A DNA stretch of 59,981 bases, the filler included. It is 8 parts of 8 records of this genome, joined end to end, with 100 filler letters (N's around TTAATTAATTAA, not from the genome) between each part and the next. Parts side by side here need not be neighbours in the genome. Positions count along the whole stretch, not along the records: positions 1 to 5,913 come from SRR31156797_6835; 7 more parts are not named here. One strand, 5' to 3'. Of the stretch, positions 1 to 52,036 are shown piece by piece; positions within the stretch are counted from its first letter, which is position 1, and each line of letters starts with the position of its first letter. Under the pieces are notes generated by a model. It was not told where the DNA came from and did no database searches. It worked only from the letters and a program-made list of their open reading frames with translations. Made by a program: the position numbers and the translations under genes.

Positions 1-24
1 GTCTCATAAGTAATTGATTATTAA

Positions 25-183
25 TCATTGAATCAGGAGTTCTGAAATTACCATCGGTTTGGCTTTGTTTTTCAGACTTACCCCGCCAACCTTTTCGCAG
101 TTGAAGGATTCCTTTACTTGTTGGTAATATGCTGTACTGATCATGTTTTTTCCGGAGCCGGCATCAGAAACCAACAGTTTCAA
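25..183 (-). pseudogene. Degenerate duplicate of the 3' end of a class III adenylate/guanylate cyclase gene
   Basis: The minus strand reads ...MISTAYYQQVKESFNCEKVGGVSLKNKAKPMVISELLIQ*. Positions 51-145 align without gaps to 5819-5913 at 76/95 identical nt (hand count). An in-frame stop lies just upstream, so only this fragment is present. Confidence 0.75.
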
Positions 184-236
184 TATTTAAAACTTTCAAT
201 ACCTTTGACTACCAAAGCAAACTTAACAAACCGAAA

Positions 237-1124
237 GTGGAAGAAAAAGTTGATATGGAGCATAAAAAGAAACTTTACAAGCAATTACTAATTAAGTCTT
301 TTCCAAAAAATTTATTGATTGAGAAACCCTATTTGGGATCAATCGTTTTTTTCGTCGTACTTTTTGTCTTTTTAGCCATTTACCGTCCATTGGATGTGCG
401 TGCATCGGGAGATCTGGGTTTTTATCTAACGATGCTCGCCTATTGTTCCATCATTTCATTAACCGAACTGGCTCTGGCCCTTACGATTTCACACACCAAT
501 TGTTTCAGGCCCAAAGGCAACTGGACCATCCTCAGTGAATTGCTATCGATCGTAGTGATATTAACCGGTATCGGGATTTCAGTATATTTTGCCGGGTTTA
601 TGCTGGAGCCTGCAGATTCACGATGGAACCTCGCTACCTTTTTCGATTCGTTTTCACGTTCCATGCTTATTGGCGCAATCCCTGTTGTTTTACCATCGCT
701 GCTTAATATTCGGTATGCTTTTGCGAATGAGACTTTTCAAAGCTTTGAACAAAAAAACAACGCTGGTGAAGACCAACGCATATTAATTCATATTGAATCG
801 AAAGCCAAAAAAGAACACCTGGAATTTTATGATGATGAATTTGTTTATGCCGAATCAAGTGGAAATTATGTGGATTTTCATCTCCAGAAGCAAGACAAAA
901 AAGAAAAGGTAATCATCCGAAACTCCATGAGCGAAATTGAAGTCCAACTCCACGGCTTCCCATATTTTATGCGCACGCATCGCGCTTTTATTGTTAACCT
1001 GAATAAAATATCCTCGCGAAAAGGAAACGCTTTGGGGTATCGGTTAACGCTAACAGGGTTTGAAAATAAACATGTTCCCGTTTCGCGCCAGAATGTCCGC
1101 AAATTCGAAGAAATGATGAGCTGA
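237..1124 (+). CDS. Membrane-anchored LytTR-family transcriptional regulator
   Basis: About four hydrophobic N-terminal segments, then a C-terminal LytTR domain (YAESSGNYV...FMRTHRAFIVNL...VPVSR). The true start may be the ATG at about 255. Confidence 0.9.
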   Translation: MEEKVDMEHKKKLYKQLLIKSFPKNLLIEKPYLGSIVFFVVLFVFLAIYRPLDVRASGDLGFYLTMLAYCSIISLTELALALTISHTNCFRPKGNWTILSELLSIVVILTGIGISVYFAGFMLEPADSRWNLATFFDSFSRSMLIGAIPVVLPSLLNIRYAFANETFQSFEQKNNAGEDQRILIHIESKAKKEHLEFYDDEFVYAESSGNYVDFHLQKQDKKEKVIIRNSMSEIEVQLHGFPYFMRTHRAFIVNLNKISSRKGNALGYRLTLTGFENKHVPVSRQNVRKFEEMMS

Positions 1125-1139
1125 TTCCGGCTTTCCGTT

Positions 1140-1219
1140 CATAACAATAACCTTGCTTCTCATCCCAATTTTATTCCGGGATTTGCCTGTTATCACAATT
1201 GTTAGCTGAGTATCCCAAC
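1140..1219 (+). promoter_or_regulatory. Putative LytTR-binding direct repeats
   Basis: Four copies of YATMMCAA at 1140, 1161, 1191 and 1211 (spacings 21, 30, 20) lie between the LytTR gene and the receptor gene. Confidence 0.5.
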
Positions 1220-1276
1220 TATTTGGTAAGTACCTGTAACCGTGTATTTCTTTGCATTAAACCTTAAAATTTTAAT

Positions 1277-3637
1277 GTGATGAAAAACTTAGTTATCAAA
1301 TCATTCCAGGTATTAATTTACACCTTCTTTGGGGTGTTACTTTTCAATGCATCGGGCTTGTATGCCCAAAACACCTCTTCCGTAAAAGGACAGGTTTTTG
1401 ACAAAAAGAGTAACCAGCCGGTACCTTTTGCAACAATCCGTTTGGAAAAAATATCAGGCCAGACATCAACACTCGTAACCGGAACCATCAGTGAATTCAA
1501 TGGCACTTTTCAAATTGATGAAATAGACGGGGGTAAATATAATTTAAGGATCAGTTCGATTGGTTTTAAGCAGGCAATAAAAACGATTGAAATATCAGGC
1601 CAACGCACAATTGATGCAGGAACATTTTTTCTTCAGGATTCGGCAGCGTTGCTTCAGGAATTCGTTGTAAAAGGTGACCGCATTAAAGGAAAGGCAGAAA
1701 AAGATAAGTCCATTTATTTTATAGATAAAAAAGTGCATAGCGCTACCGGCAACACGCCGGGGCTCCTGAGGCACATTCCGGGTGTGCAGGTCGATCTGAA
1801 GCAAAATATTTCGGTCAACGGAAACACTGACATCCTGATTTTTGTGGACGGAAAAGAACACGACAAAAGTTATATCAGTCAGCTTAACCCATCACGAATA
1901 GCCAAAATAGAAGTGATGGATACGCCTCCATCCAATTATGACGGGAACGTGTCCGGAGTTATCAATATCATCCTGAAAAAAGAAAAAATCAGCGGTATAA
2001 GCGGACATGTATTTTCTGAAATACCCACTTCTAAGGCGGTGGTTTATTCGTTCCCAACTGCCGGTATCAATTACAGCTACAATAAAGTGAACCTTTACAC
2101 TTCGTACAACGGCGAAATAAACTATGAAGACATTGATGAAAAAACGATCTGGCAATTTGAAGGCAACAATACACCCAGGGAAATCACTTCCATCCAGCAC
2201 GTCAGACAAAAAAACCTGTCACACAAATTTAATTATGGAATAGATTATCACCTGACTTCGAGAGACGTTATCAATTTTTACGGCTTTTATAACCACTACG
2301 CTTACGAACAGGATGGCGATGCAGTAGTGCAGGCCAATGAAAGCAATGCCGACTTATGGAATACAACCAAAGATGAAACAGATAAAAATCAAAACCTGTT
2401 TAACTCACTTTATTACAAACATTTGTTTAGCACTGAAGGAAGTGAAATTTCAATCGATATCAGCAATGCACATATCCAATCCAACAACAAGATTTCATAT
2501 ATCTATGATTCCCTCATTCATGTCAATACAAAACGACCGGAACAAAAAACCAACAGCATAAGGGTTGATTTTAAATCGCCATTTGGCAACAGGTTTCAAT
2601 TCAGTTCGGGGGTAAAGTTCAAATCAAGGAAAATGCACGACAATTCATCTGATGGGTTCCAATACAATGAGCGTGTTTATGCCATATATGGCTCGTTGAA
2701 CTACGCACTTTCAAAGTTTGATTTCAATATTGGCCTGAGGGCAGAAGATGCTGTAACTGAACTAAACGACAGCCAAAAATCATCCTGCTTTTCATTGTTG
2801 CCATACACTGCTGTGCATTACAAGATTGATGAACAAAACAGCCTCAACTTTTCCTATCGCCGGTCAGTCACCCGTCCTTCGGTGTATTTGCTTACCCCTT
2901 ACTCCTATTTTGAAACTCCGTTCAACATCCAAACCGGAAACCCCAATCTAAGTCCGGCATTCTATAACCAGGTTCAGTTAGAATTTGCCACCCAAATAAA
3001 AGGTAATTTCTTATCTGTGCGCCTATTTCACCAGTCAACATCCAATGCCATTAACAATTTAACGTATTTAAACAGTAACGATATAATAGTAACCCAACCC
3101 CAAAACCTCGGTAACATCGAACAATATGGTGTGCAGTTAACAGGGTCTTTCGTGGACGGAATGGTTTCTATAAATCCTTCATTCCGCTTGTACAACCAGG
3201 CAACCGCGCCAAACAACAAGGCAAAACAATACGGTATAAGCAGTAAAAACAATCTTGTTTTTGAAACCGGATTTTCATCCATCATTTCATTTCAAAATGA
3301 CTATGCCTTGTCGCTTATTTTCCAATATAAATCAACAATAGAAAATATTCAGGACAACTCATACAGTGACGCCCTTTATTTTATTTCGCTCGATAAAACC
3401 TTCCGGGAAAAAATTAAGGTTGGAATTGTCAGTGCCCTTCCGTTTGCCAAAAACTTTGTTTATCAGGGAGCGGATATTAAAGCGCCCGGTTTTTCCAGTG
3501 AATACACCGGCAATTTAAAACTCCCTAAAATTCCTCTGATGTTCAGGATCAATTACCAGTTCAATACCGGGAAAAACAGGAACAAAATCAGCCGCACCAT
3601 GGAGCAGGTTGACAGAAAGCCCAAACAGGGATTATAA
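1277..3637 (+). CDS. TonB-dependent receptor / outer-membrane beta-barrel protein with N-terminal carboxypeptidase-regulatory-like domain
   Basis: Signal peptide, VKGQVFD...PVPFATI domain, plug motifs (LLRHIPGVQVD, PSNYDG...GVINIILKK), GNPNLSP, and a terminal beta-strand RINYQF. Confidence 0.88.
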   Translation: MMKNLVIKSFQVLIYTFFGVLLFNASGLYAQNTSSVKGQVFDKKSNQPVPFATIRLEKISGQTSTLVTGTISEFNGTFQIDEIDGGKYNLRISSIGFKQAIKTIEISGQRTIDAGTFFLQDSAALLQEFVVKGDRIKGKAEKDKSIYFIDKKVHSATGNTPGLLRHIPGVQVDLKQNISVNGNTDILIFVDGKEHDKSYISQLNPSRIAKIEVMDTPPSNYDGNVSGVINIILKKEKISGISGHVFSEIPTSKAVVYSFPTAGINYSYNKVNLYTSYNGEINYEDIDEKTIWQFEGNNTPREITSIQHVRQKNLSHKFNYGIDYHLTSRDVINFYGFYNHYAYEQDGDAVVQANESNADLWNTTKDETDKNQNLFNSLYYKHLFSTEGSEISIDISNAHIQSNNKISYIYDSLIHVNTKRPEQKTNSIRVDFKSPFGNRFQFSSGVKFKSRKMHDNSSDGFQYNERVYAIYGSLNYALSKFDFNIGLRAEDAVTELNDSQKSSCFSLLPYTAVHYKIDEQNSLNFSYRRSVTRPSVYLLTPYSYFETPFNIQTGNPNLSPAFYNQVQLEFATQIKGNFLSVRLFHQSTSNAINNLTYLNSNDIIVTQPQNLGNIEQYGVQLTGSFVDGMVSINPSFRLYNQATAPNNKAKQYGISSKNNLVFETGFSSIISFQNDYALSLIFQYKSTIENIQDNSYSDALYFISLDKTFREKIKVGIVSALPFAKNFVYQGADIKAPGFSSEYTGNLKLPKIPLMFRINYQFNTGKNRNKISRTMEQVDRKPKQGL

Positions 3638-3734
3638 AAATCGCTAATTTAAAAAGCTCTTATTTATTCGAGGCATGAATTAGGATTACCATAAAAAAAG
3701 ATTAAGCATACTTTTGACTATCGGACCAAAAACA

Positions 3735-3821
3735 ATGTTCAAACAACCTTACAAAAATATAGCTGACATTCTGTACAAGGCACCAGGGAGTAACAACGAA
3801 CCAGACTATATCAGGAGATAA
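3735..3821 (+). pseudogene. Decayed 5' remnant of a type I restriction-modification methyltransferase (HsdM N-terminus)
   Basis: Reads MFKQPYKNIADILYKAPGSNNEPDYIRR*. This resembles, from memory, HsdM N-termini of the form MFEQTFKNIDDILHKDAGCGSELDYVEQ. The frame is lost after about 26 codons. Confidence 0.5.
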
Positions 3822-4022
3822 ACTTAGCCATTTATGGTACCTAAAAAAACCCATTCCCCATAAGGCTTTACTGGAAAACATACTTTAGCCGACCCGACAA
3901 GCAACGAATAATATAATGCCGTTTGAGCCAGATAAAAGAGACAGAAAAAACTATAAATTTGTATGCGAAGAAAAAGTACATCTTAACGTTAAGAAAAAAA
4001 AGAGAATTTGTTTGGGTAGGTT

Positions 4023-4916
4023 ATGAAAGGAATGTATTACAGAAGAAAATTATTATTGGCTTTACTTCAGGTTTTTGATGGCAGGCTCGAAAAACTCAGT
4101 TTACAAAAACTTTTGTTTTTAGTTACCCGTCAGCAGCGCGTAAAAAGCTATGATTTTGTACCCTACAAATTTGGTTGTTTCTCATTTCAGGCAAATGCCG
4201 ATTTGCATACACTTACAAAATACAATTTGATACGCGAATCAACATCAAACTGGGAACGTACGGATGAATCCTGTTATATTGATACTTTAAAAAAAGAAGA
4301 CAAGGCCATTATTCTTGATGCAAGACATCAATTTGGCAATTTAAGCACCAACGCATTAATTAAGTTGACATATCAAAAGCACCCATACTACGCAATCAAT
4401 AGCACCATCTTAAAAGAAGTATTAAATGCACAGGAATTAAAAAAGGTAAAAAGGCAAAAAAGAACCAGCAACAAAAATGTTCTGTTTACTATTGGTTATG
4501 AAGGCATTTCCCTGGAAACCTACATAAACAAGTTGATAATAAACGATGTGAAGCTATTGTGCGATGTACGAAAAAATTCGTTTAGCATGAAGTACGGTTT
4601 TAGCAAATCACAATTGAGTAATGCTTGTAATGGCGTTGGCATAAAGTTCGTGCATATCCCCGAACTTGGCATTCAATCGGAAAAAAGACGAGCATTGAAC
4701 AGCCAGACAGATTATGATGTGTTATTTGAAGAATACAAAAAAACAGTGCTAAAGAATTTTGTTGATAAACAAAAGGAGATTCTACAATTATTGAGAAGCG
4801 AAAAACGAATTGCAATAACTTGTTTTGAGAAAAACATAAATCAATGCCACCGAAAACATCTCGCCTATTCAATAGAAAGTCTGGATGAATTTAGTTTCCC
4901 TGTAAAACATATATAA
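4023..4916 (+). CDS. DUF488-domain protein with N-terminal winged-helix (SocA/Panacea- or DarG-C-like) domain
   Basis: The C-terminal half has DUF488 motifs FTIGYEG, DVR, ELG and CFE-x5-CHR. The N-terminal about 140 aa carry an LQKLLFL...YDFVPYKFGCFS pattern. Confidence 0.85.
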   Translation: MKGMYYRRKLLLALLQVFDGRLEKLSLQKLLFLVTRQQRVKSYDFVPYKFGCFSFQANADLHTLTKYNLIRESTSNWERTDESCYIDTLKKEDKAIILDARHQFGNLSTNALIKLTYQKHPYYAINSTILKEVLNAQELKKVKRQKRTSNKNVLFTIGYEGISLETYINKLIINDVKLLCDVRKNSFSMKYGFSKSQLSNACNGVGIKFVHIPELGIQSEKRRALNSQTDYDVLFEEYKKTVLKNFVDKQKEILQLLRSEKRIAITCFEKNINQCHRKHLAYSIESLDEFSFPVKHI

Positions 4917-5728
4917 TGGCAAGAACAAAAGTTTTAATAACCGTAAAAACATACCCGTCAATTTCTACAAAATATGAGGAAATAGTCTGTACCGCAGGTA
5001 TGAAAGAAACCGGTGAGTGGATTAGAATTTATCCTGTGCCTTTCCGAAAGCTGCCTTATGCCCAACAGTATCCAAAGTATCAATGGGTAGAAATAGATAT
5101 GGTGAAAAATACCAGCGATTTCAGACCGGAAAGTTATCGGCCAAGAAACATTGACGCAGAAGACCTTATTGTTATCGGAGAAAAGATTGACACAAAACAC
5201 AAGTGGGCAAAACGAAAAGAAATCGTTTTACAAAATGTATATACGAATTTAAGTAAGTTAATCGATGAGGCTAAAACAGAAGGAGAATACACGTCTTTAG
5301 CAGTGTTTAAGCCAACCCGCATTAAAGATTTTATTGTAGAGAAAGCAGCTCGTGACTGGAATGATAAGCAAAAGGCTGCCCTACAGCAAGGGAATCTCTT
5401 TGAGGATAAAAGCGATTTTGAAGTTGTGAAAAAACTGCCCTACAAGTTTAGCTATGTTTTTGAAGATTGCTACGGGAAAGAAAGTACGCTAATGAATGAA
5501 GATTGGGAAGTTGGCGCACTTTATTGGAATTGTTTAAAAAACAACAACGGAGACGAAAAATCTGCTTGTGATGATGTAAAGAAGAAGTACTGGGATGACT
5601 TTGCCAAAACAAAAGACCTACATTTTTTCCTGGGTACAACCAAGTTAAATCAACTGAGAGCGCCGAATCCTTTTGTGATTATCGGAACCTTTCATCCGCC
5701 AATTGAGTTGCAACAAAGTTTATTCTAA
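4916..5728 (+). CDS. Uncharacterised DUF488-associated protein, probably dual-OB-fold-like, with beta-clamp-like motifs
   Basis: Coupled to the DUF488 gene by a TAATG overlap. The N-terminal VCTAG...GEWIRIYP resembles the CxAG...GxWIRP signature of dual-OB proteins. It contains QGNLF and ends in QQSLF. Confidence 0.7.
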   Translation: MARTKVLITVKTYPSISTKYEEIVCTAGMKETGEWIRIYPVPFRKLPYAQQYPKYQWVEIDMVKNTSDFRPESYRPRNIDAEDLIVIGEKIDTKHKWAKRKEIVLQNVYTNLSKLIDEAKTEGEYTSLAVFKPTRIKDFIVEKAARDWNDKQKAALQQGNLFEDKSDFEVVKKLPYKFSYVFEDCYGKESTLMNEDWEVGALYWNCLKNNNGDEKSACDDVKKKYWDDFAKTKDLHFFLGTTKLNQLRAPNPFVIIGTFHPPIELQQSLF

Positions 5729-5795
5729 CTTGCATTACCCCATCCTCCAACTCAGGTTCTGCAAAAAAAAATGACAGGATTTGCATCTGAAATTA

Positions 5796-5912
5796 CTACT
5801 CCACCACCTCATAAATCACCATGGGTTTGGCTTTGTTTTTCAGGTTTACTTCGCCCACCTTTTTGCATTTGAAGGACTCTTTTACTTTTTCGTAAGAACC
5901 CTCACTGATGAT
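5796..5912 (-). CDS. 3' end of a class III adenylate/guanylate cyclase domain protein (truncated by contig end)
   Basis: Reads IISEGSYEKVKESFKCKKVGEVNLKNKAKPMVIYEVVE*, a typical cyclase C-terminal pattern (I-S-x3-Y...G-x3-LK-x-K...IYEV). It is missing from the ORF track. Confidence 0.8.
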   Translation of the reverse strand: MISEGSYEKVKESFKCKKVGEVNLKNKAKPMVIYEVVE

Positions 5913-5913
5913 G

Positions 5914-6013
5914 NNNNNNNNNNNNNNNNNNNNNNNNNNNNNNNNNNNNNNNNNNNNTTAATTAATTAANNNNNNNNNNNNNNNNNNNNNNNNNNNNNNN
6001 NNNNNNNNNNNNN
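5914..6013. other. Artificial contig linker
   Basis: N44-TTAATTAATTAA-N44, with stops in all six frames. Confidence 0.99.
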
Positions 6014-6101
6014 AAGCGCCCGCTACCCCCTCTGCGGGGGACACCCCCGCAACGCCCCCGGGGGAGGTTTTTGGCCGGGTGTATTGTTTTGGGGGTGGGG
6101 T

Positions 6102-7397
6102 GTGAGAGAGGGGTGGTTTGAAACTACTATTGGTGAACAAGTTACTTTGCAGCGTGGATTTGATATAACAAAAAAGCAGCAAGTTCCAGGAGAAGTTCCT
6201 GTCATTTCTTCTGGCGGAATCTCTAGTAATCATAATGATTTTAAAGTTCATGGACCCGGAGTAATTCTTGGACGAAAAGGTTCATTGGGAACTGTTTTTT
6301 ATTCAGAAAGAAACTACTGGCCTCATGATACCACCTTGTGGGTAAAAGACTTTAAAAAAAATAATCCAAAGTTTGTGTATTACTTTTTCTTAAATATGGC
6401 AGATACATTAAAATCTATGGATGTTGGAGCTGCAAATCCGGCATTGAATAGAAATCATGTTCATCCTATCGAAATAACATGGCCGGATCGTTTAGAGCAA
6501 GATCGGATTGTCGAAATATTATCTTCTCTTGATAATAAAATCGATATTAACAATCAAATCAATACCACCCTTGAAGTCATGACTCAGGCTCTCTTCAAAT
6601 CCTGGTTTGTGGATTTTGATCCGGTTAAGGCTAAGATTGAGGTTTTGGAATCCGGAGGCACTGCTGAAGAGGCGGAGATTGCTGCCATGGGGGCAATCAG
6701 TGGGAAGAGTGCTGAAGAGTTGAAGGTTATGGAAGATGCCGATCCTGACTCCTATGCTCAACTGAGGGACACGGCTGCTCTTTTTCCGGATAAGCTTGTG
6801 GAGAGTGAGTTGGGATTGATCCCGGAGGGGTGGGAGGTTAAGTCGCTAGACGAATTAGCACATTATCAGAATGGGTTAGCGTTGCAGAAGTTTCGCCCGG
6901 AAGATGAAAATGATTTCTTACCAGTATTAAAAATCGCTCAACTGAAAAAGGGGACGACAGATGGAGCCGAGAAAGCATCTCCAAAAATAAAGCCTGAATG
7001 TATTGTAGCTAACGGAGACTTAATTTTTTCTTGGTCAGGTTCATTATTCGTTGATATCTGGTGTGGTGGACCTGCTGCTTTAAATCAACATCTTTTCAAA
7101 GTTACTTCAGTTAATTATCCTAAATGGCTATATTACTACTATACAAAACACCATCTTCAGGAATTTATTCGAATTGCGGCAGCAAAAGCCGTTACAATGG
7201 GACACATAAAAAGAGTACATCTTTCTCAAGCAAGATCTCCAATACCAAAGATTCAAGTTATTGAATCTTTATCGGGTTATTTTGCATCTCATTTGGATTT
7301 ACAGATTGAAAATCGGTTAGAAATTTCATCTCTCTCAACTCTAAGAGATGAATTATTAAGTAAACTTTTTTCTAGTGATGGAGCGGTGTTAAAATGA
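6102..7397 (+). CDS. hsdS: Type I restriction-modification specificity subunit
   Basis: Two TRDs separated by the conserved helical region (EQDRIVEILSSLDNKI...QALFKSWFVDF...ESELGLIPEGW) and a C-terminal LRDELL. GTG at 6102 is the likely start. Confidence 0.93.
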   Translation: MREGWFETTIGEQVTLQRGFDITKKQQVPGEVPVISSGGISSNHNDFKVHGPGVILGRKGSLGTVFYSERNYWPHDTTLWVKDFKKNNPKFVYYFFLNMADTLKSMDVGAANPALNRNHVHPIEITWPDRLEQDRIVEILSSLDNKIDINNQINTTLEVMTQALFKSWFVDFDPVKAKIEVLESGGTAEEAEIAAMGAISGKSAEELKVMEDADPDSYAQLRDTAALFPDKLVESELGLIPEGWEVKSLDELAHYQNGLALQKFRPEDENDFLPVLKIAQLKKGTTDGAEKASPKIKPECIVANGDLIFSWSGSLFVDIWCGGPAALNQHLFKVTSVNYPKWLYYYYTKHHLQEFIRIAAAKAVTMGHIKRVHLSQARSPIPKIQVIESLSGYFASHLDLQIENRLEISSLSTLRDELLSKLFSSDGAVLK

Positions 7398-9370
7398 AAA
7401 TGACAAAAATAAAAATTCAGGGATTTAAATGTTTCAATGAATCAACAGAGTTCGACTTAAATCCTTTAACGACCTTAATTGGCTCTAATGGTGTGGGTAA
7501 AACTGCTGTTCTGGAAGCATTAAACCGGATGTTTTGCATTGAAAAATCAAGACGCAAGATAAAAAATTCTGACTTTTATATTCCAGCTGGTGAACAATTG
7601 GATAGCAAGGAGGCAAGGTTTCTTGCCATTGAGGTGAGAATCGATTTTCCTCTTATTGGTACTGGGGGAGAAGAATCTGAAATCCCTGGAATGTTTGGTC
7701 AAATGGTTATTGATAGTGTGGGAGAACCTCCCTACTGCCGTATTTTATTGAAGGCTGATTGGTCAATCAGCAATATACCTGATGGTGAAATTACAGAGAA
7801 TATGTATTGGATCAGGACTGCTGCTGAACAATTTTCTGACAATGATTGCCAACTTTTTAAGCCTAGTGATCGTAATAAAATACATTTACATTATATTCCT
7901 GCAAATAGAGATCCTCAGAATCAGCTTCGGCAGACTGTTGGAACAATAATGTACCAGTTACTGAGAGCTGTAAATTGGTCTGAAGGGATTAAAGAAAATA
8001 TAAATAGTTATGCGAACGAGTTACAAGAAGCTTTCCAACGCGAAAATGGGGTCAAGACAATTCAGAGTACGTTTTCGAATAACTGGAAATCTTTCTTCAA
8101 CTCGCACCATTATTCCGAAGTAAATCTCAGTCCATTGAGTAGTGATTTTAATGATATAATAACGAGAGTCGAAGCATTGTTTTCCCCAAATCCTGAAGGA
8201 CATGATGATTCTCCGGAGAAATTAAGTGATGGAATGCGTTCTCTATTCTACTTAACGCTGATAAGCAGTCTATTTGATATTCAAGATAAGATTGGTAGGG
8301 ATATTGAAAATCATGGATTTAATCCGGAGCATTTGAATCAACCATTATTAACTATTTTTGCAATTGAAGAGCCAGAAAATCATTTATCTCCTCATTATAT
8401 TGGAAAGGTATTGAAAGCTTTTAAAAGGCTATTAGAGAACAATAAAGCTCAGGTGATAATATCAAGCCATTCAACTTCAATCCTTCATAGAATTGAACCG
8501 GAAGAAATTCGCTATTTACGACTTAAACAAGATCGGAGTACAGAGATAAAGAAGATCTTATTGCCAGAAGAAACGGATGAAGCATATAAATACGTCAAAA
8601 ATGCTGTTAAGGCATATCCTGAACTATATTTTTCTAAGGCTGTATTACTTGGAGAAGGTGATAGTGAAGAAATCGTTTTACCAATCATTGCTGAAGCATT
8701 AGAAACTTCGTTAGATTCCTCTTTTGTTTCTATGGTTCCACTTGGCGGAAGGCATGTCAATCATTTTTGGCGATTATTGAATGATTTGAAAATACCTCAT
8801 ATTACTCTTTTGGACTATGATAGAGGTCGAGGAGGTGGTGATTGGGGCCGGATTCAATATGTTATTAAAGAGCTTTTAAAAAATGAAGTAATATCATCGT
8901 CTGATCTGAAAGGTGAGTCGGGTGAAATACTTGATTATGAGTTAATGCATGAATGGAAATCCGATAATGAATTGGAGATAAAATGGATCAAATGGCTTGG
9001 GGAAAAAAATGTGTTCTTTTCATATCCGATTGATTTAGATTTCTTGATGTATAGTCATTATAAAACATCATATCAATCTTATATTCCGGAAAATGGTGGT
9101 CCCAGAATACCAAAGTCTGATGACCCTCAATATATTGATAAAGTAAAAAATGCTGTTGCTTCTGTACTAAAAAAGGAAAAAGAAGATATTGGCAATATTC
9201 CACGAGATTTCGAAAGCTATTATTGGTATCGATATCTATTTTTGGGTCGAGGAAAGCCGGTTTCTCATATTCATGCGATGTCTGTTCTTGATAAATCCGA
9301 TTTAGTAAAGAACTGCCCCTCTGTTTTTAAGAAAATTATAGAGAAATTAGATGAATATATTGCAGATTAG
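7394..9370 (+). CDS. OLD-family ATP-dependent endonuclease (ABC ATPase + TOPRIM), GajA-like
   Basis: Walker A GSNGVGKT, signature LSDGMRS, Walker B AIEEPENHL, H-loop SSHS, and TOPRIM motifs GEGDSE and DYD. ATGA overlap with hsdS. Confidence 0.92.
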   Translation: MKMTKIKIQGFKCFNESTEFDLNPLTTLIGSNGVGKTAVLEALNRMFCIEKSRRKIKNSDFYIPAGEQLDSKEARFLAIEVRIDFPLIGTGGEESEIPGMFGQMVIDSVGEPPYCRILLKADWSISNIPDGEITENMYWIRTAAEQFSDNDCQLFKPSDRNKIHLHYIPANRDPQNQLRQTVGTIMYQLLRAVNWSEGIKENINSYANELQEAFQRENGVKTIQSTFSNNWKSFFNSHHYSEVNLSPLSSDFNDIITRVEALFSPNPEGHDDSPEKLSDGMRSLFYLTLISSLFDIQDKIGRDIENHGFNPEHLNQPLLTIFAIEEPENHLSPHYIGKVLKAFKRLLENNKAQVIISSHSTSILHRIEPEEIRYLRLKQDRSTEIKKILLPEETDEAYKYVKNAVKAYPELYFSKAVLLGEGDSEEIVLPIIAEALETSLDSSFVSMVPLGGRHVNHFWRLLNDLKIPHITLLDYDRGRGGGDWGRIQYVIKELLKNEVISSSDLKGESGEILDYELMHEWKSDNELEIKWIKWLGEKNVFFSYPIDLDFLMYSHYKTSYQSYIPENGGPRIPKSDDPQYIDKVKNAVASVLKKEKEDIGNIPRDFESYYWYRYLFLGRGKPVSHIHAMSVLDKSDLVKNCPSVFKKIIEKLDEYIAD

Positions 9371-9373
9371 CTT

Positions 9374-11260
9374 ATGACTATTATTGACCCTAAAAAATGG
9401 AAACCGATCGATATAGAATCCTTGGAAAAAAGAGCGGAGAATGTAGTGCGTAATTCTTGTGACAATACATTAGTCACTGCCGGTCCAGGTGCAGGAAAAA
9501 CAGAATTATTAGCTCAAAAGGCCTGCTTCTTATTGCAAACAGGAGCATGTGGCAGACATAATAAGATCCTGGCTATCAGTTTTAAGAAAGATGCTGCAAA
9601 AAACCTACGAGAGCGTGTATTAGAGCGAGGAGGACGTGAATTTTCATCACAATTTGAATCCTTAACTTTTGATGCGTTTGCGAAGAGCCTTTTAGATCGT
9701 TTCTTGTCAGGATTGCCCGAAACATATAGAGTGAATAAAAATTATGAAATTGATTTTACCCTAGGAAGAGTTCAAGAGATTGAGGATAGCATAAGAGCGA
9801 TTATTGGAAAAACCGAAGTAGACAAAAAATTTTTATATGAAATTGATTTTAGGAATTTTGAACGGGAATACCTATGTGGTACTTGTTTGCCAATAAATGA
9901 GGAAAGTAATGAAAATATAATTGCCGGAGCTTTGTGGCAGTACTTTCTTTTTTATCATAATCCATCAAAGTTAAGTTTTTCGATGATTATGAGATTATCT
10001 GAATATATTTTAAACACCAACCCTTTATTATTAAAGTCTCTACGTTTAACCTATAAATATCTATTTTTAGATGAGTTTCAGGATACAACATCAATTCAAT
10101 ATGATTTTGTAAAAACTTGCTTTTTAGGCTCAAGAACTCTCGTTACTGCTGTTGGAGATAGTAAGCAAAGAATTATGGGTTGGGCTGGTGCTCTACAGAA
10201 CTCATTTGAAACTTGCCGGGAAGATTTTAAATGCAAAGAAGTTCAATTAATCAATAACTATAGATCCGTTCCTAAGTTGGTTAATATACAGAATAATATT
10301 GCACTGTATATCGAAGAAAACGGAATACCAAGTCAATCCAAGAGATCTGTTGATTTTGAAGAAGGATTCTGTTGTGTATACAAATACAATAATTATTTCG
10401 ATGAAGCTAAGGATATTTCGAATAGAATTAAGAGTATACTTTGTAGTGATAATATACATCCTCGTGATATTTGTATTATTGTACGGCAAACTCCTGATCA
10501 AATATGTTCAAATTTGATTGGTGAACTTTCAAAGTTTGAAGTGCAAGCGAGAATTGAAAATGATTATCAGGATCTATTTACAGAACCAATAATTGAGTTA
10601 ATAATTGCCACTCTCTCAATTGCTTTATGTGGAAAAGTACCTGAATATTGGCAAATCCTTGATGATTATTTTCAACGGGTTCTGTCAAACTTTGAAGACG
10701 ACAGTTTTGACACTACACCATATATTCAGAATCTGAAGGAAAATTGTGTTAATGTTGTTAAACAAAACCAAAATTTAACACGAGTATCGATTGGCAATAT
10801 TGTAATCGCAATTTTAGGTCTTTTAGAGGTACCTAACATTCAATCTTTATATCCACAGTATCAAGAAGATAGAGATTGGAAAAATCATGTAACAAAGTTT
10901 ATTGATCTGTTTGAAGGTAATTTGAAAAAAAACTGGAAGAAAAGTCTACTCTCTTTCATTGGGAAGGACTCCGTTCCTATTATGACTTTGCATAAAAGTA
11001 AGGGCTTGGAATTCCATACTGTCATCTTTATCGGTTTAGAAGATCAGCAATTATGGGGATTTCGACGAAATCCAGAGGAAGAGACTTCTGGATTTTTTGT
11101 TGCATTTTCTAGAGCAATAAACACTATGATTTTTACTTTAAGTTTAAAACGTAACAATCGTTTTGGTAATATTGAAACCAGAACAACAAGGGACTTAGAG
11201 CCATTATATCGATTATTATTAGAATCGGGAGTCAAGGTTATTCCTGTTGCTACAATATGA
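9374..11260 (+). CDS. UvrD/SF1A helicase, GajB-like partner of the OLD nuclease
   Basis: Motifs AGPGAGKT, DEFQD, VGDSKQRI, NYRS, TLHKSKGLEF and FVAFSRA. Starts 3 nt after the OLD gene. Confidence 0.92.
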   Translation: MTIIDPKKWKPIDIESLEKRAENVVRNSCDNTLVTAGPGAGKTELLAQKACFLLQTGACGRHNKILAISFKKDAAKNLRERVLERGGREFSSQFESLTFDAFAKSLLDRFLSGLPETYRVNKNYEIDFTLGRVQEIEDSIRAIIGKTEVDKKFLYEIDFRNFEREYLCGTCLPINEESNENIIAGALWQYFLFYHNPSKLSFSMIMRLSEYILNTNPLLLKSLRLTYKYLFLDEFQDTTSIQYDFVKTCFLGSRTLVTAVGDSKQRIMGWAGALQNSFETCREDFKCKEVQLINNYRSVPKLVNIQNNIALYIEENGIPSQSKRSVDFEEGFCCVYKYNNYFDEAKDISNRIKSILCSDNIHPRDICIIVRQTPDQICSNLIGELSKFEVQARIENDYQDLFTEPIIELIIATLSIALCGKVPEYWQILDDYFQRVLSNFEDDSFDTTPYIQNLKENCVNVVKQNQNLTRVSIGNIVIAILGLLEVPNIQSLYPQYQEDRDWKNHVTKFIDLFEGNLKKNWKKSLLSFIGKDSVPIMTLHKSKGLEFHTVIFIGLEDQQLWGFRRNPEEETSGFFVAFSRAINTMIFTLSLKRNNRFGNIETRTTRDLEPLYRLLLESGVKVIPVATI

Positions 11261-11889: not shown

Positions 11890-11989
11890 NNNNNNNNNNN
11901 NNNNNNNNNNNNNNNNNNNNNNNNNNNNNNNNNTTAATTAATTAANNNNNNNNNNNNNNNNNNNNNNNNNNNNNNNNNNNNNNNNNNNN
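11890..11989. other. Artificial contig linker
   Basis: N44-TTAATTAATTAA-N44. Confidence 0.99.
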
Positions 11990-23509: not shown

Positions 23510-23609
23510 NNNNNNNNNNNNNNNNNNNNNNNNNNNNNNNNNNNNNNNNNNNNTTAATTAATTAANNNNNNNNNNNNNNNNNNNNNNNNNNNNNNNNNNN
23601 NNNNNNNNN
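23510..23609. other. Artificial contig linker
   Basis: N44-TTAATTAATTAA-N44. Confidence 0.99.
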
Positions 23610-30947: not shown

Positions 30948-31047
30948 NNNNNNNNNNNNNNNNNNNNNNNNNNNNNNNNNNNNNNNNNNNNTTAATTAAT
31001 TAANNNNNNNNNNNNNNNNNNNNNNNNNNNNNNNNNNNNNNNNNNNN
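30948..31047. other. Artificial contig linker
   Basis: N44-TTAATTAATTAA-N44. Confidence 0.99.
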
Positions 31048-38938: not shown

Positions 38939-39038
38939 NNNNNNNNNNNNNNNNNNNNNNNNNNNNNNNNNNNNNNNNNNNNTTAATTAATTAANNNNNN
39001 NNNNNNNNNNNNNNNNNNNNNNNNNNNNNNNNNNNNNN
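38939..39038. other. Artificial contig linker
   Basis: N44-TTAATTAATTAA-N44. Confidence 0.99.
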
Positions 39039-44390: not shown

Positions 44391-44490
44391 NNNNNNNNNN
44401 NNNNNNNNNNNNNNNNNNNNNNNNNNNNNNNNNNTTAATTAATTAANNNNNNNNNNNNNNNNNNNNNNNNNNNNNNNNNNNNNNNNNNNN
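44391..44490. other. Artificial contig linker
   Basis: N44-TTAATTAATTAA-N44. Confidence 0.99.
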
Positions 44491-51936: not shown

Positions 51937-52036
51937 NNNNNNNNNNNNNNNNNNNNNNNNNNNNNNNNNNNNNNNNNNNNTTAATTAATTAANNNNNNNN
52001 NNNNNNNNNNNNNNNNNNNNNNNNNNNNNNNNNNNN
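51937..52036. other. Artificial contig linker
   Basis: N44-TTAATTAATTAA-N44. Confidence 0.99.

Follow-up and report, generated by a model that had tools for sequence, protein, structure and literature searches.

Two adjacent genes at positions 4023 to 5728 of a 59,981-nucleotide (nt) stretch of DNA, filler included and hereafter called the window, form a translationally coupled module whose products combine a DUF488 enzyme domain, a Panacea-like domain and a relative of the DuOB (dual OB) proteins. Judged by profile matches over the full length of both proteins, the locus is a further member of the candidate family catalogued by PADLOC as PDC-M19, not a new system, and we tentatively read the pair as a horizontally mobile conflict module. 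An earlier note, made from the letters of the window, had proposed an uncharacterised DNA-targeting defence or toxin-antitoxin system at this place. The features of the module are as follows.

4023..4916, plus strand: gene 1 (product A), an open reading frame (ORF) of 297 amino acids (aa) encoding a two-domain protein; PADLOC PDC-M19A; phrog_14939
4023..4430, plus strand: N-terminal Panacea (SocA/DUF4065)/DarG-C-like domain of gene 1, residues ~1-136, by hhalign
4512..4865, plus strand: DUF488 domain of gene 1, residues 164-281, Pfam PF04343, E 1.7e-22
4914-4918, plus strand: TAATG stop/start overlap, the TAA of gene 1 and the ATG of gene 2 having one base in common
4916..5728, plus strand: gene 2 (product B), an ORF of 270 aa; PADLOC PDC-M19B; phrog_25907

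The gene pair and its catalogue entry

Gene 1 starts either at 4023 or at an ATG at 4032, the latter being the start in most homologues. The coupling to gene 2 is read directly in the sequence as the TAATG, and comparably tight spacing recurs in related loci: among 46 homologous pairs, counted after two duplicate loci had been dropped, the genes share 1 or 4 nt in 14 and are separated by 0-4 nt in 16, so that the spacing is this tight in 30 of 46. In the related loci, ORFs were called crudely, by taking the longest non-overlapping ones with a minimum of 70-75 aa.

Both PADLOC models are matched over their full length, gene 1 by PDC-M19A (PDLC04505, E 1e-124, residues 4-297 against model positions 1-294 of 294) and gene 2 by PDC-M19B (PDLC04508, E 6.9e-124, residues 1-270 against 1-269 of 269), and the genes are adjacent and on the same strand, as in the catalogued candidate. 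PHROG families of unknown function exist for both as well (E 2.4e-71 for gene 1 with phrog_14939, E 2.1e-67 for gene 2 with phrog_25907), and the module is not nameless. According to the available text of the preprint by Payne et al. 2024 (PADLOC-DB v2), there are 145 PDC systems, 'phage defence candidates' still awaiting tests, which were drawn from cassettes lying within loci for BREX, DISARM or type I restriction-modification (R-M). PADLOC lists the pair as PDC-M19 because such cassettes sat inside R-M, BREX or DISARM systems; in this respect the present copy differs from the definition of the candidate, none of these systems lying on its contig. The name 'PDC-M19' itself was not found in the literature searched.

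Two domains in the upstream protein

The motifs that the earlier note had picked out in gene 1, namely LQKLLFL (residues 27-33), YDFVPYKFGCFS (43-54), TIGY (156-159), DVR (181-183) and CFE-x5-CHR (267-277), are all present and are invariant or nearly so in an alignment of 18 homologues, and are therefore not chance resemblances. The two-domain architecture is kept in all 18 aligned sequences. PF04343 likewise matched every one of the 18, and gene 1 itself scores 80.7 bits against a gathering cut-off of 22.2 for this family, with an additional below-threshold match to the Pfam model DUF488-N3a. G158-Y159-E160, D181-V182-R183, C267, E269 and C275-H276-R277 are invariant throughout the alignment, which bears out the reading of a DUF488 domain with intact motifs. 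'Active' DUF488 forms are named in the title of the Pfam family, and the Cys, His and Arg residues have a catalytic role. Among the titles listed in a literature search on DUF488, none concerns its mechanism.

The N-terminal domain had been likened to SocA/Panacea and DarG C-terminal domains, and profile-profile comparison agrees: 23 N-domains aligned by hhalign with 17 Pfam-positive Panacea domains over 114 columns, at 93.9% probability and E 1.5e-7. Single-sequence matches are weak (Pfam SocA_Panacea, E 0.008; the PADLOC and NCBIfam DarG models, ~1e-3). Against SocA/Panacea (PF13274), gene 1 scores 17.5 bits, below the gathering cut-off of 25.7, and the model matched 9 of the 18 homologues at E<=1, all of them below the gathering score. 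In the Protein Data Bank (PDB), the alignment profile of gene 1 matched only a DarG chain (7yk3_B, E 0.28, residues 22-54), and the single sequence matched nothing. The Panacea signature is given as GPV in the available part of PMC8832971; at this position gene 1 reads G51-C52-F53, the G being invariant, with GPF in the homologue from locus L019 and GSY in that from L016. The accessible portion of PMC13621843 describes the C-terminal domain of DarG as helical and DarT-inhibiting and as a homologue of DUF4065 (Panacea) proteins; the earlier note had called the corresponding domain of gene 1 a wHTH. By profile comparison gene 1 is homologous to Panacea, yet it is not a Pfam-level member of that family. 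Its matches in Pfam, PADLOC and NCBIfam are limited to DUF488 and the weak Panacea/DarG-C signal, with no macro or NADAR domain.

A divergent DuOB relative downstream

The motifs VCTAG (residues 24-28) and GEWIRIYP (33-40), with which gene 2 had been said to begin, are both present, near the N-terminus and not at the very start, and are invariant or nearly so in an alignment of 82 homologues. Gene 2 has no match in Pfam or NCBIfam, including no match to DarT in Pfam. The threshold of the Pfam DuOB model (PF22557) is not reached, with none of the 82 family members matched at E<=1, and the model found nothing in G001, a genome that carries the pair. Compared by hhalign with 48 DuOB sequences gathered from genomes and a protein collection, the profile of gene 2 aligns over 192 columns (96.6% probability, E 6.1e-10), from 15 to 272 in the query and from 15 to 238 in the template, nearly the whole of both proteins; an earlier comparison with seven DuOB sequences had aligned only 31 N-terminal columns. 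The near-invariant G, R and E of DuOB correspond to G28, R37 and E72 of gene 2, and two remote homologues of gene 2, one from a Gordonia phage and the other from a Sulfolobus plasmid, match the Pfam DuOB model (E 0.002). The earlier description of gene 2 as dual-OB-like holds in the sense of homology to Pfam DuOB.

An AlphaFold2 model of gene 2 (predicted local distance difference test 93.9, predicted template modelling score 0.90) has a beta-rich N-terminal half, in which residues 4-90 follow the order strand-strand-strand-helix-strand-strand of an OB fold; in the second half, an OB fold is unclear from secondary structure alone. We tentatively assign the OB fold on the strength of the profile homology and this secondary structure, and by profile comparison gene 2 is a divergent DuOB relative outside the Pfam-level family. 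Polar positions are strongly conserved (K11, E22, C25, R37, D68, R70, E72, D196 and E198). A PDB search with the alignment profile gave no match at E<=10, and a protein atlas had no entry for the protein from the window; its listing for the homologue P0007 consists of unnamed clusters with DuOB at rank 28 (score 0.82), which is a lead only. ARPP was considered as an identity for gene 2 from its description only; according to the available part of PMC9503650, it partners rhodanese-phosphatase enzymes, has one conserved Cys and one conserved Gln, and combines a beta-meander with a barrel. No experimentally shown function of DuOB-like proteins was found.

Distribution and degradation

Relatives of gene 2 number 6,521 at E<=1e-3, many of them 60-85% identical and from several phyla. 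The two genes travel together in three separate samples. In the first genome sample (20 loci, three of which start inside gene 2), all 17 loci with upstream DNA have a full-length gene 1 immediately before gene 2. An even draw from one phylum found gene 2 in 22 of 401 genomes, one copy each, and here a full-length gene 1 lies upstream in 20, a convergent DUF488-only gene is present in one, and one has none. On viral contigs from IMG/VR, the full pair is present in 14 of 17 loci. Gene 2 is the better conserved partner in 42 of the 46 pairs, with a median identity to the window proteins of 59.7% as opposed to 47.0% for gene 1.

The two genes also decay unequally. In L042, L053 (identical to L054), L057 and L058, a broken or fragmentary gene 2 accompanies an open gene 1 whose CFE..CHR motif is intact; in L055, gene 2 is degraded and gene 1 was not detected. 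The earlier note had called the module DarT-less, and this extends to its hosts, DarT (PF14487) being absent from four of five pair-carrying genomes and located on another contig in the fifth. Fusions of gene 2 occur as five singletons and carry little weight. One of them, P0391, joins a gene 2-like N-terminal part to a KAP-family NTPase in a protein of 876 aa.

Neighbouring defence genes

In the first sample, 118 neighbouring ORFs were examined by Pfam, 57 of them also by PADLOC. Type I R-M genes or their remnants lie at most 4 ORFs away in 6 of the 20 loci (L002, L003, L004, L006, L007 and L008), and in L003, L004, L006 and L007 the pair is on the same strand and directly upstream of or inside the type I R-M operon. 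In L018, an exonuclease, PRTase-CE and NADAR are encoded upstream of the pair and a helicase downstream, and a MazF toxin is found near the pair in L005. The remaining loci have housekeeping-like or unnamed neighbours.

The second sample comprised another 20 loci, with 150 of 155 neighbouring ORFs scanned by PADLOC at E<=1e-12. Defence matches, including type I, IIG and II R-M, Kiwa, LmuB and retron fragments, fall within 4 ORFs of the pair in 12 of the 20 loci and in 24 of the 150 ORFs. Scored by the same rule, twenty control regions 50 kb away on the same contigs gave matches in 6 loci and in 6 of 120 ORFs (one-sided Fisher p 0.055 for loci and 0.003 for ORFs, which are not independent). The enrichment near R-M and other defence genes that the earlier note had proposed to look for is therefore there, in modest form only. 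Genomic context makes a role in biological conflict plausible, as had been suggested.

Two individual loci deserve mention. At 4258-7300 of L063, the order is a type I hsdS gene, the Kiwa genes KwaA and KwaB, and the PDC-M19 pair, whose gene 2 has a premature stop at the same place as in L042; several systems are thus stacked in one R-M locus. At 5812-8806 of L075, a retron-type RT-Toprim (RT, reverse transcriptase) gene is split into three ORFs beside a degraded gene 2 without gene 1; the RT-Toprim gene is apparently pseudogenised, and the locus looks like a decaying defence islet.

Ordinary housekeeping repair of DNA or RNA, by genes placed in variable regions by chance, would suit both the occurrence of DUF488 alone in 7 of 14 well-known control genomes and the housekeeping neighbours of about half of the pair loci, such as recA and sigma-54 in L009 and L010. 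Such a role is nevertheless very improbable in our view: the pair is confined to just the 22 of 401 genomes mentioned above, several copies are pseudogenised, the closely similar proteins occur in different phyla, and phages and plasmids carry the genes.

Phage and plasmid copies

Searched by tblastn, gene 2 homologues occur in 7 phage records, all of Gordonia phages, and in 23 plasmid records, 11 of which are typed as conjugative. In the Gordonia phage Nymphadora, the homologue gp43 directly follows the immunity repressor gp44, with the integrase three genes away, and the DUF488 gene and gene 2 homologue sit between repressor and integrase; gp42 and gp43 overlap convergently. The gp42 gene, at 5819-6271 on the minus strand of NC_031061.1 (L034), is labelled 'HipA toxin' and in fact encodes a DUF488 protein (Pfam E 1.2e-29). 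An adjacent DUF488 gene was found in five of the six plasmid loci inspected. It is convergent in four, on plasmids of Rhizobium, Streptomyces, Arthrobacter and Burkholderia, and on a Calothrix plasmid it was recognised by a purpose-built hidden Markov model (E 4e-15); in the Sulfolobus plasmid locus, no DUF488 gene was detectable.

A selfish addiction cassette of the toxin-antitoxin kind, stabilising its mobile elements and without an antiviral role, would account for the plasmid and phage records, the patchy distribution, the toxin-antitoxin-like layout and the antitoxin-type domain. Around many chromosomal copies, though, the nearest 4 ORFs on either side include no mobile-element genes, and R-M and other defence genes are associated with the pair more than with the control regions, so that we regard this explanation as improbable.

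Among the 17 IMG/VR loci, head, tail, connector, lysis or packaging genes (by PHROGs) lie within 4 ORFs of the pair in 10, and two further loci have only integrase or replication genes close by. The pair is antisense within a head module in L123 and L134 and just upstream of terminase genes in L132 and L135. Carriage by phages was not anticipated by the earlier note, and since the cassette is common inside phage genomes, defence and counter-defence both have to be considered.

In the wider family, DUF488 lacks the Panacea-like domain and is usually encoded by a separate, convergently overlapping gene. Six of eight inspected loci with a Pfam-positive DuOB (L026, L027, L028, L030, L031 and L032) have it flanked by two DUF488-like genes, one of the ...DVRS.PYS... 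type and the other of the ...D.R.N..SQLAGF... type, consistent with the three-gene 'N3' arrangement to which the Pfam names DUF488-N3a and DUF488-N3i refer. Burroughs and Aravind reportedly described the coupling of DUF488 to DuOB in 2023 and are said to have predicted DNA-end processing by the DUF488 clade in conflict systems. The module in the window shares with these DUF488-N3/DuOB systems (PF22751, PF22557) the genomic coupling of a DUF488 enzyme to a DuOB-type protein. It departs from them in having one DUF488 gene instead of two, fused to a Panacea-like domain, and a longer gene 2 with helical insertions that is missed by Pfam DuOB.

These layouts bear on an alternative in which A and B are not toxin and antidote but a cooperative pair that processes nucleic acid for repair or counter-defence, a possibility that we consider on the unlikely side. 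The DuOB-like protein would bind single-stranded DNA (ssDNA) or RNA, or an end, and hand this substrate over to DUF488 for removal of either a terminal phosphate or an adduct of the sugar-phosphate or ADP-ribose type. Phage copies would serve counter-defence or repair, like orphan antitoxin-like enzymes that undo DarT damage, and bacterial copies would repair the damage done by conflict systems, with the Panacea-like domain as an adaptor or a decoy for foreign toxins. The association of DUF488 with DuOB-like proteins is indeed much wider than the Panacea fusion and includes two-DUF488 and convergent layouts; the 10 of 17 viral loci near structural, lysis or packaging genes, the NADAR, exonuclease and PRTase-CE genes just upstream in L018, and the existence of an A-B fusion (P0392) point the same way. 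Phages carry orphan antitoxin-like enzymes against DarTG, according to the available part of PMC11825919. Left unexplained by cooperation are the loss of gene 2 with gene 1 kept (four cases, as against one of the reverse) and the fusion of an antitoxin-type domain to an enzyme. Same-strand insertion at type I R-M operons is not expected of an anti-defence gene either, and the lack of DarT in four of five host genomes counts against this alternative, though it is neutral for a role on the phage side.

The contig of origin

The window consists of eight contigs of 5.4-11.5 kb, with a GC content of 0.32 to 0.51, chained by linkers of the form N44-TTAATTAATTAA-N44, and gene neighbourhoods cannot be read across the joints. 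The contig with the gene pair is exactly 1-5913 of the window. Other features of this contig and of the next are listed below.

25-183 and 5799-5912, minus strand: similar C-terminal peptides (...VKESF.C.KVG.V.LKNKAKPMVI...)
237-1124: LytTR regulator, by Pfam, on the same contig as the pair
1277-3637: TonB-dependent-receptor-like outer-membrane protein, by Pfam, on the same contig as the pair
6084-7397: hsdS (type I specificity subunit), by Pfam and PADLOC, on the next contig
7394-9370: GajA, by PADLOC (E 1e-239), on the next contig
9374-11260: GajB, by PADLOC (E 7e-199), on the next contig
5914-6013, 11890-11989, 23510-23609, 30948-31047, 38939-39038, 44391-44490 and 51937-52036: linkers

An R-M neighbourhood, on which the earlier note had relied, is absent from the contig of the pair. 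The hsdS, GajA and GajB genes (6084-11260) belong to the next contig, none of them lies on the 5,913-nt contig of the pair, and their apparent adjacency is therefore an artefact of concatenation. The hsdM remnant said to precede the pair was not recovered either: four HsdM proteins, searched by tblastn against 1-5914, gave a best E of 0.36, and a 28-aa ORF at 3735-3818 had no match in a Pfam scan. The earlier reader interpreted the domains well, overrated the novelty of the locus and leaned on a gene context that is not there. On the next contig, hsdS is directly followed by a complete Gabija pair, apparently a Gabija system inside or next to a type I R-M locus that the contig end cuts off.

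The repeat-bracketed block described for the locus is real as far as the repeat goes. A direct repeat of 101 nt and 80% identity lies at 45-145 and 5813-5913, and its copies are the coding 3' ends of cyclase-like genes on the minus strand; the peptides at 25-183 and 5799-5912 look like the ends of class III cyclases, although these pieces are short and had no match in a Pfam scan. Both ends of the contig are common to several other contigs of greater depth, and the repeat belongs to a multi-copy gene family. The bracket is therefore an assembly break at multi-copy sequence and no evidence of an element boundary. The idea of an integrated island bounded by the repeat was given up on account of the multi-copy nature of the repeat and its position at the ends of the contig.

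A scan for sigma-70 promoters and terminators gave no signal above shuffled sequences, and an Rfam search of 1-5913 found no match. No RNA record containing the stretch was listed. Contigs from a microbial-mat study are ~95% identical to parts of the stretch and give no information about function.

Interpretation

Our tentatively preferred reading, a serious possibility that falls somewhat short of probable, is that the pair is a horizontally mobile two-gene conflict module, either a DarTG-like toxin-antitoxin system or an abortive-infection or defence system. It would represent the PDC-M19 version of the broader association between DUF488 and DuOB-like genes, and its carriers are bacterial chromosomes, often with R-M and other defence genes alongside, plasmids and phages. 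The reading draws on the conservation of the pair with its overlap or gap of at most 4 nt, the homology of the N-domain to Panacea antitoxin domains, the decay of gene 2 while gene 1 persists, and the better conservation of gene 2. The patchy single-copy distribution, the defence-gene and R-M neighbours in excess of the control, the candidate status in PADLOC and the Nymphadora copies between immunity repressor and integrase argue in the same direction.

Under this reading, gene 2 (B) would be the effector, a DuOB-type protein that binds single-stranded nucleic acid and bears the conserved polar site, and gene 1 (A) a two-in-one neutraliser of B. The Panacea/DarG-C-like domain of A would bind and block B, and the action of B on nucleic acid would be undone or forestalled by DUF488, a cysteine enzyme with the rhodanese-phosphatase fold; infection or loss of A would then free B. 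The domain identities, the conserved coupling, the mobility, the modest association with defence islands and the unequal decay are observed; the binding of A to B, the harmfulness of B, its substrate and an outcome in phage defence are inferred. The roles of effector and neutraliser are suggested by analogy with DarG and with Panacea antitoxins. Panacea antitoxins neutralise many unrelated toxins through direct binding (PMC8832971, in the available part), and DarG unites toxin binding with enzymatic reversal (PMC8832971; PMC13621843, as far as their accessible text goes).

In its layout, gene 1 resembles DarG in that an enzyme domain and a DarG-C/Panacea-like binding domain are joined in one protein, encoded upstream of and beside a partner that probably acts on single-stranded nucleic acid. 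The differences are considerable: the domain order is reversed, the enzyme is DUF488, the partner is DuOB-like and not an ADP-ribosyltransferase, and with no DarT, macro or NADAR domain recognised the pair is not DarTG. As in the type II PanA/PanT systems, a Panacea-like domain lies immediately upstream of, and translationally coupled to, an unrelated and better conserved partner; unlike in those systems, the domain is below the Pfam threshold, has GCF for GPV and is fused to an enzyme, and the partner is a putative toxin. With the orphan antitoxin-like enzymes of phages (AdfN NADAR and DarG mimics) the module shares the presence of an antitoxin-like enzyme in phages without a cognate toxin, the differences being another enzyme family, the constant DuOB-like partner and the occurrence in bacterial R-M loci.

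Several observations weigh against a toxin-antidote or defence function. Only the LytTR regulator and the TonB-dependent-receptor-like gene accompany the pair on its own contig, the association with defence genes elsewhere is modest though real, and about half of the loci lie in housekeeping-like surroundings. The asymmetry of decay is based on four independent events, and L047, the sole reverse case, keeps an intact gene 2 with a broken N-domain of gene 1. The database protein P0392 joins the Panacea-like domain, DUF488 and gene 2 in one ORF of 595 aa. Many phage copies are co-directional in or beside packaging and structural modules and could have a function for the phage itself, and the separate and double DUF488 layouts fit cooperating enzymes at least as well as toxin and antidote. 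PDC-M19 is not among the candidates assayed in the available part of a cold-seep study, and no toxicity, binding or phage phenotype is known for it, PDCs being untested candidates.

A more specific form of the conflict-module reading may be proposed. The C-terminal domain of DarG is said to mimic ssDNA, going by the title of Deep et al. 2023, and by analogy we guess that A might insert an ssDNA-mimicking plug into the OB groove of B. PDC-M19 would then work in two layers, with the DuOB-type protein clamping or modifying single-stranded nucleic acid while A plugs the OB surface and its DUF488 domain erases the lesion, and phages would use the module for superinfection exclusion or as a portable antidote to defences by which the host modifies nucleic acid. 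In this detail the proposal is speculative, and we think it rather unlikely to hold as a whole.

To the PADLOC listing of PDC-M19, the analysis adds the DarG-like 'binder plus enzyme' layout of gene 1, the identity of gene 2 as a DuOB relative missed by Pfam, the decay of gene 2 while gene 1 persists, and the frequent presence of the cassette inside phage genomes. As a version of the DUF488-DuOB association, the pair is small, highly conserved and simple to clone, and the two cysteines, the Panacea-like G51 and the conserved polar site of gene 2 offer experimental handles. If the two-layer reading were true, it would provide a first function for DUF488, a domain that is also found in E. coli.

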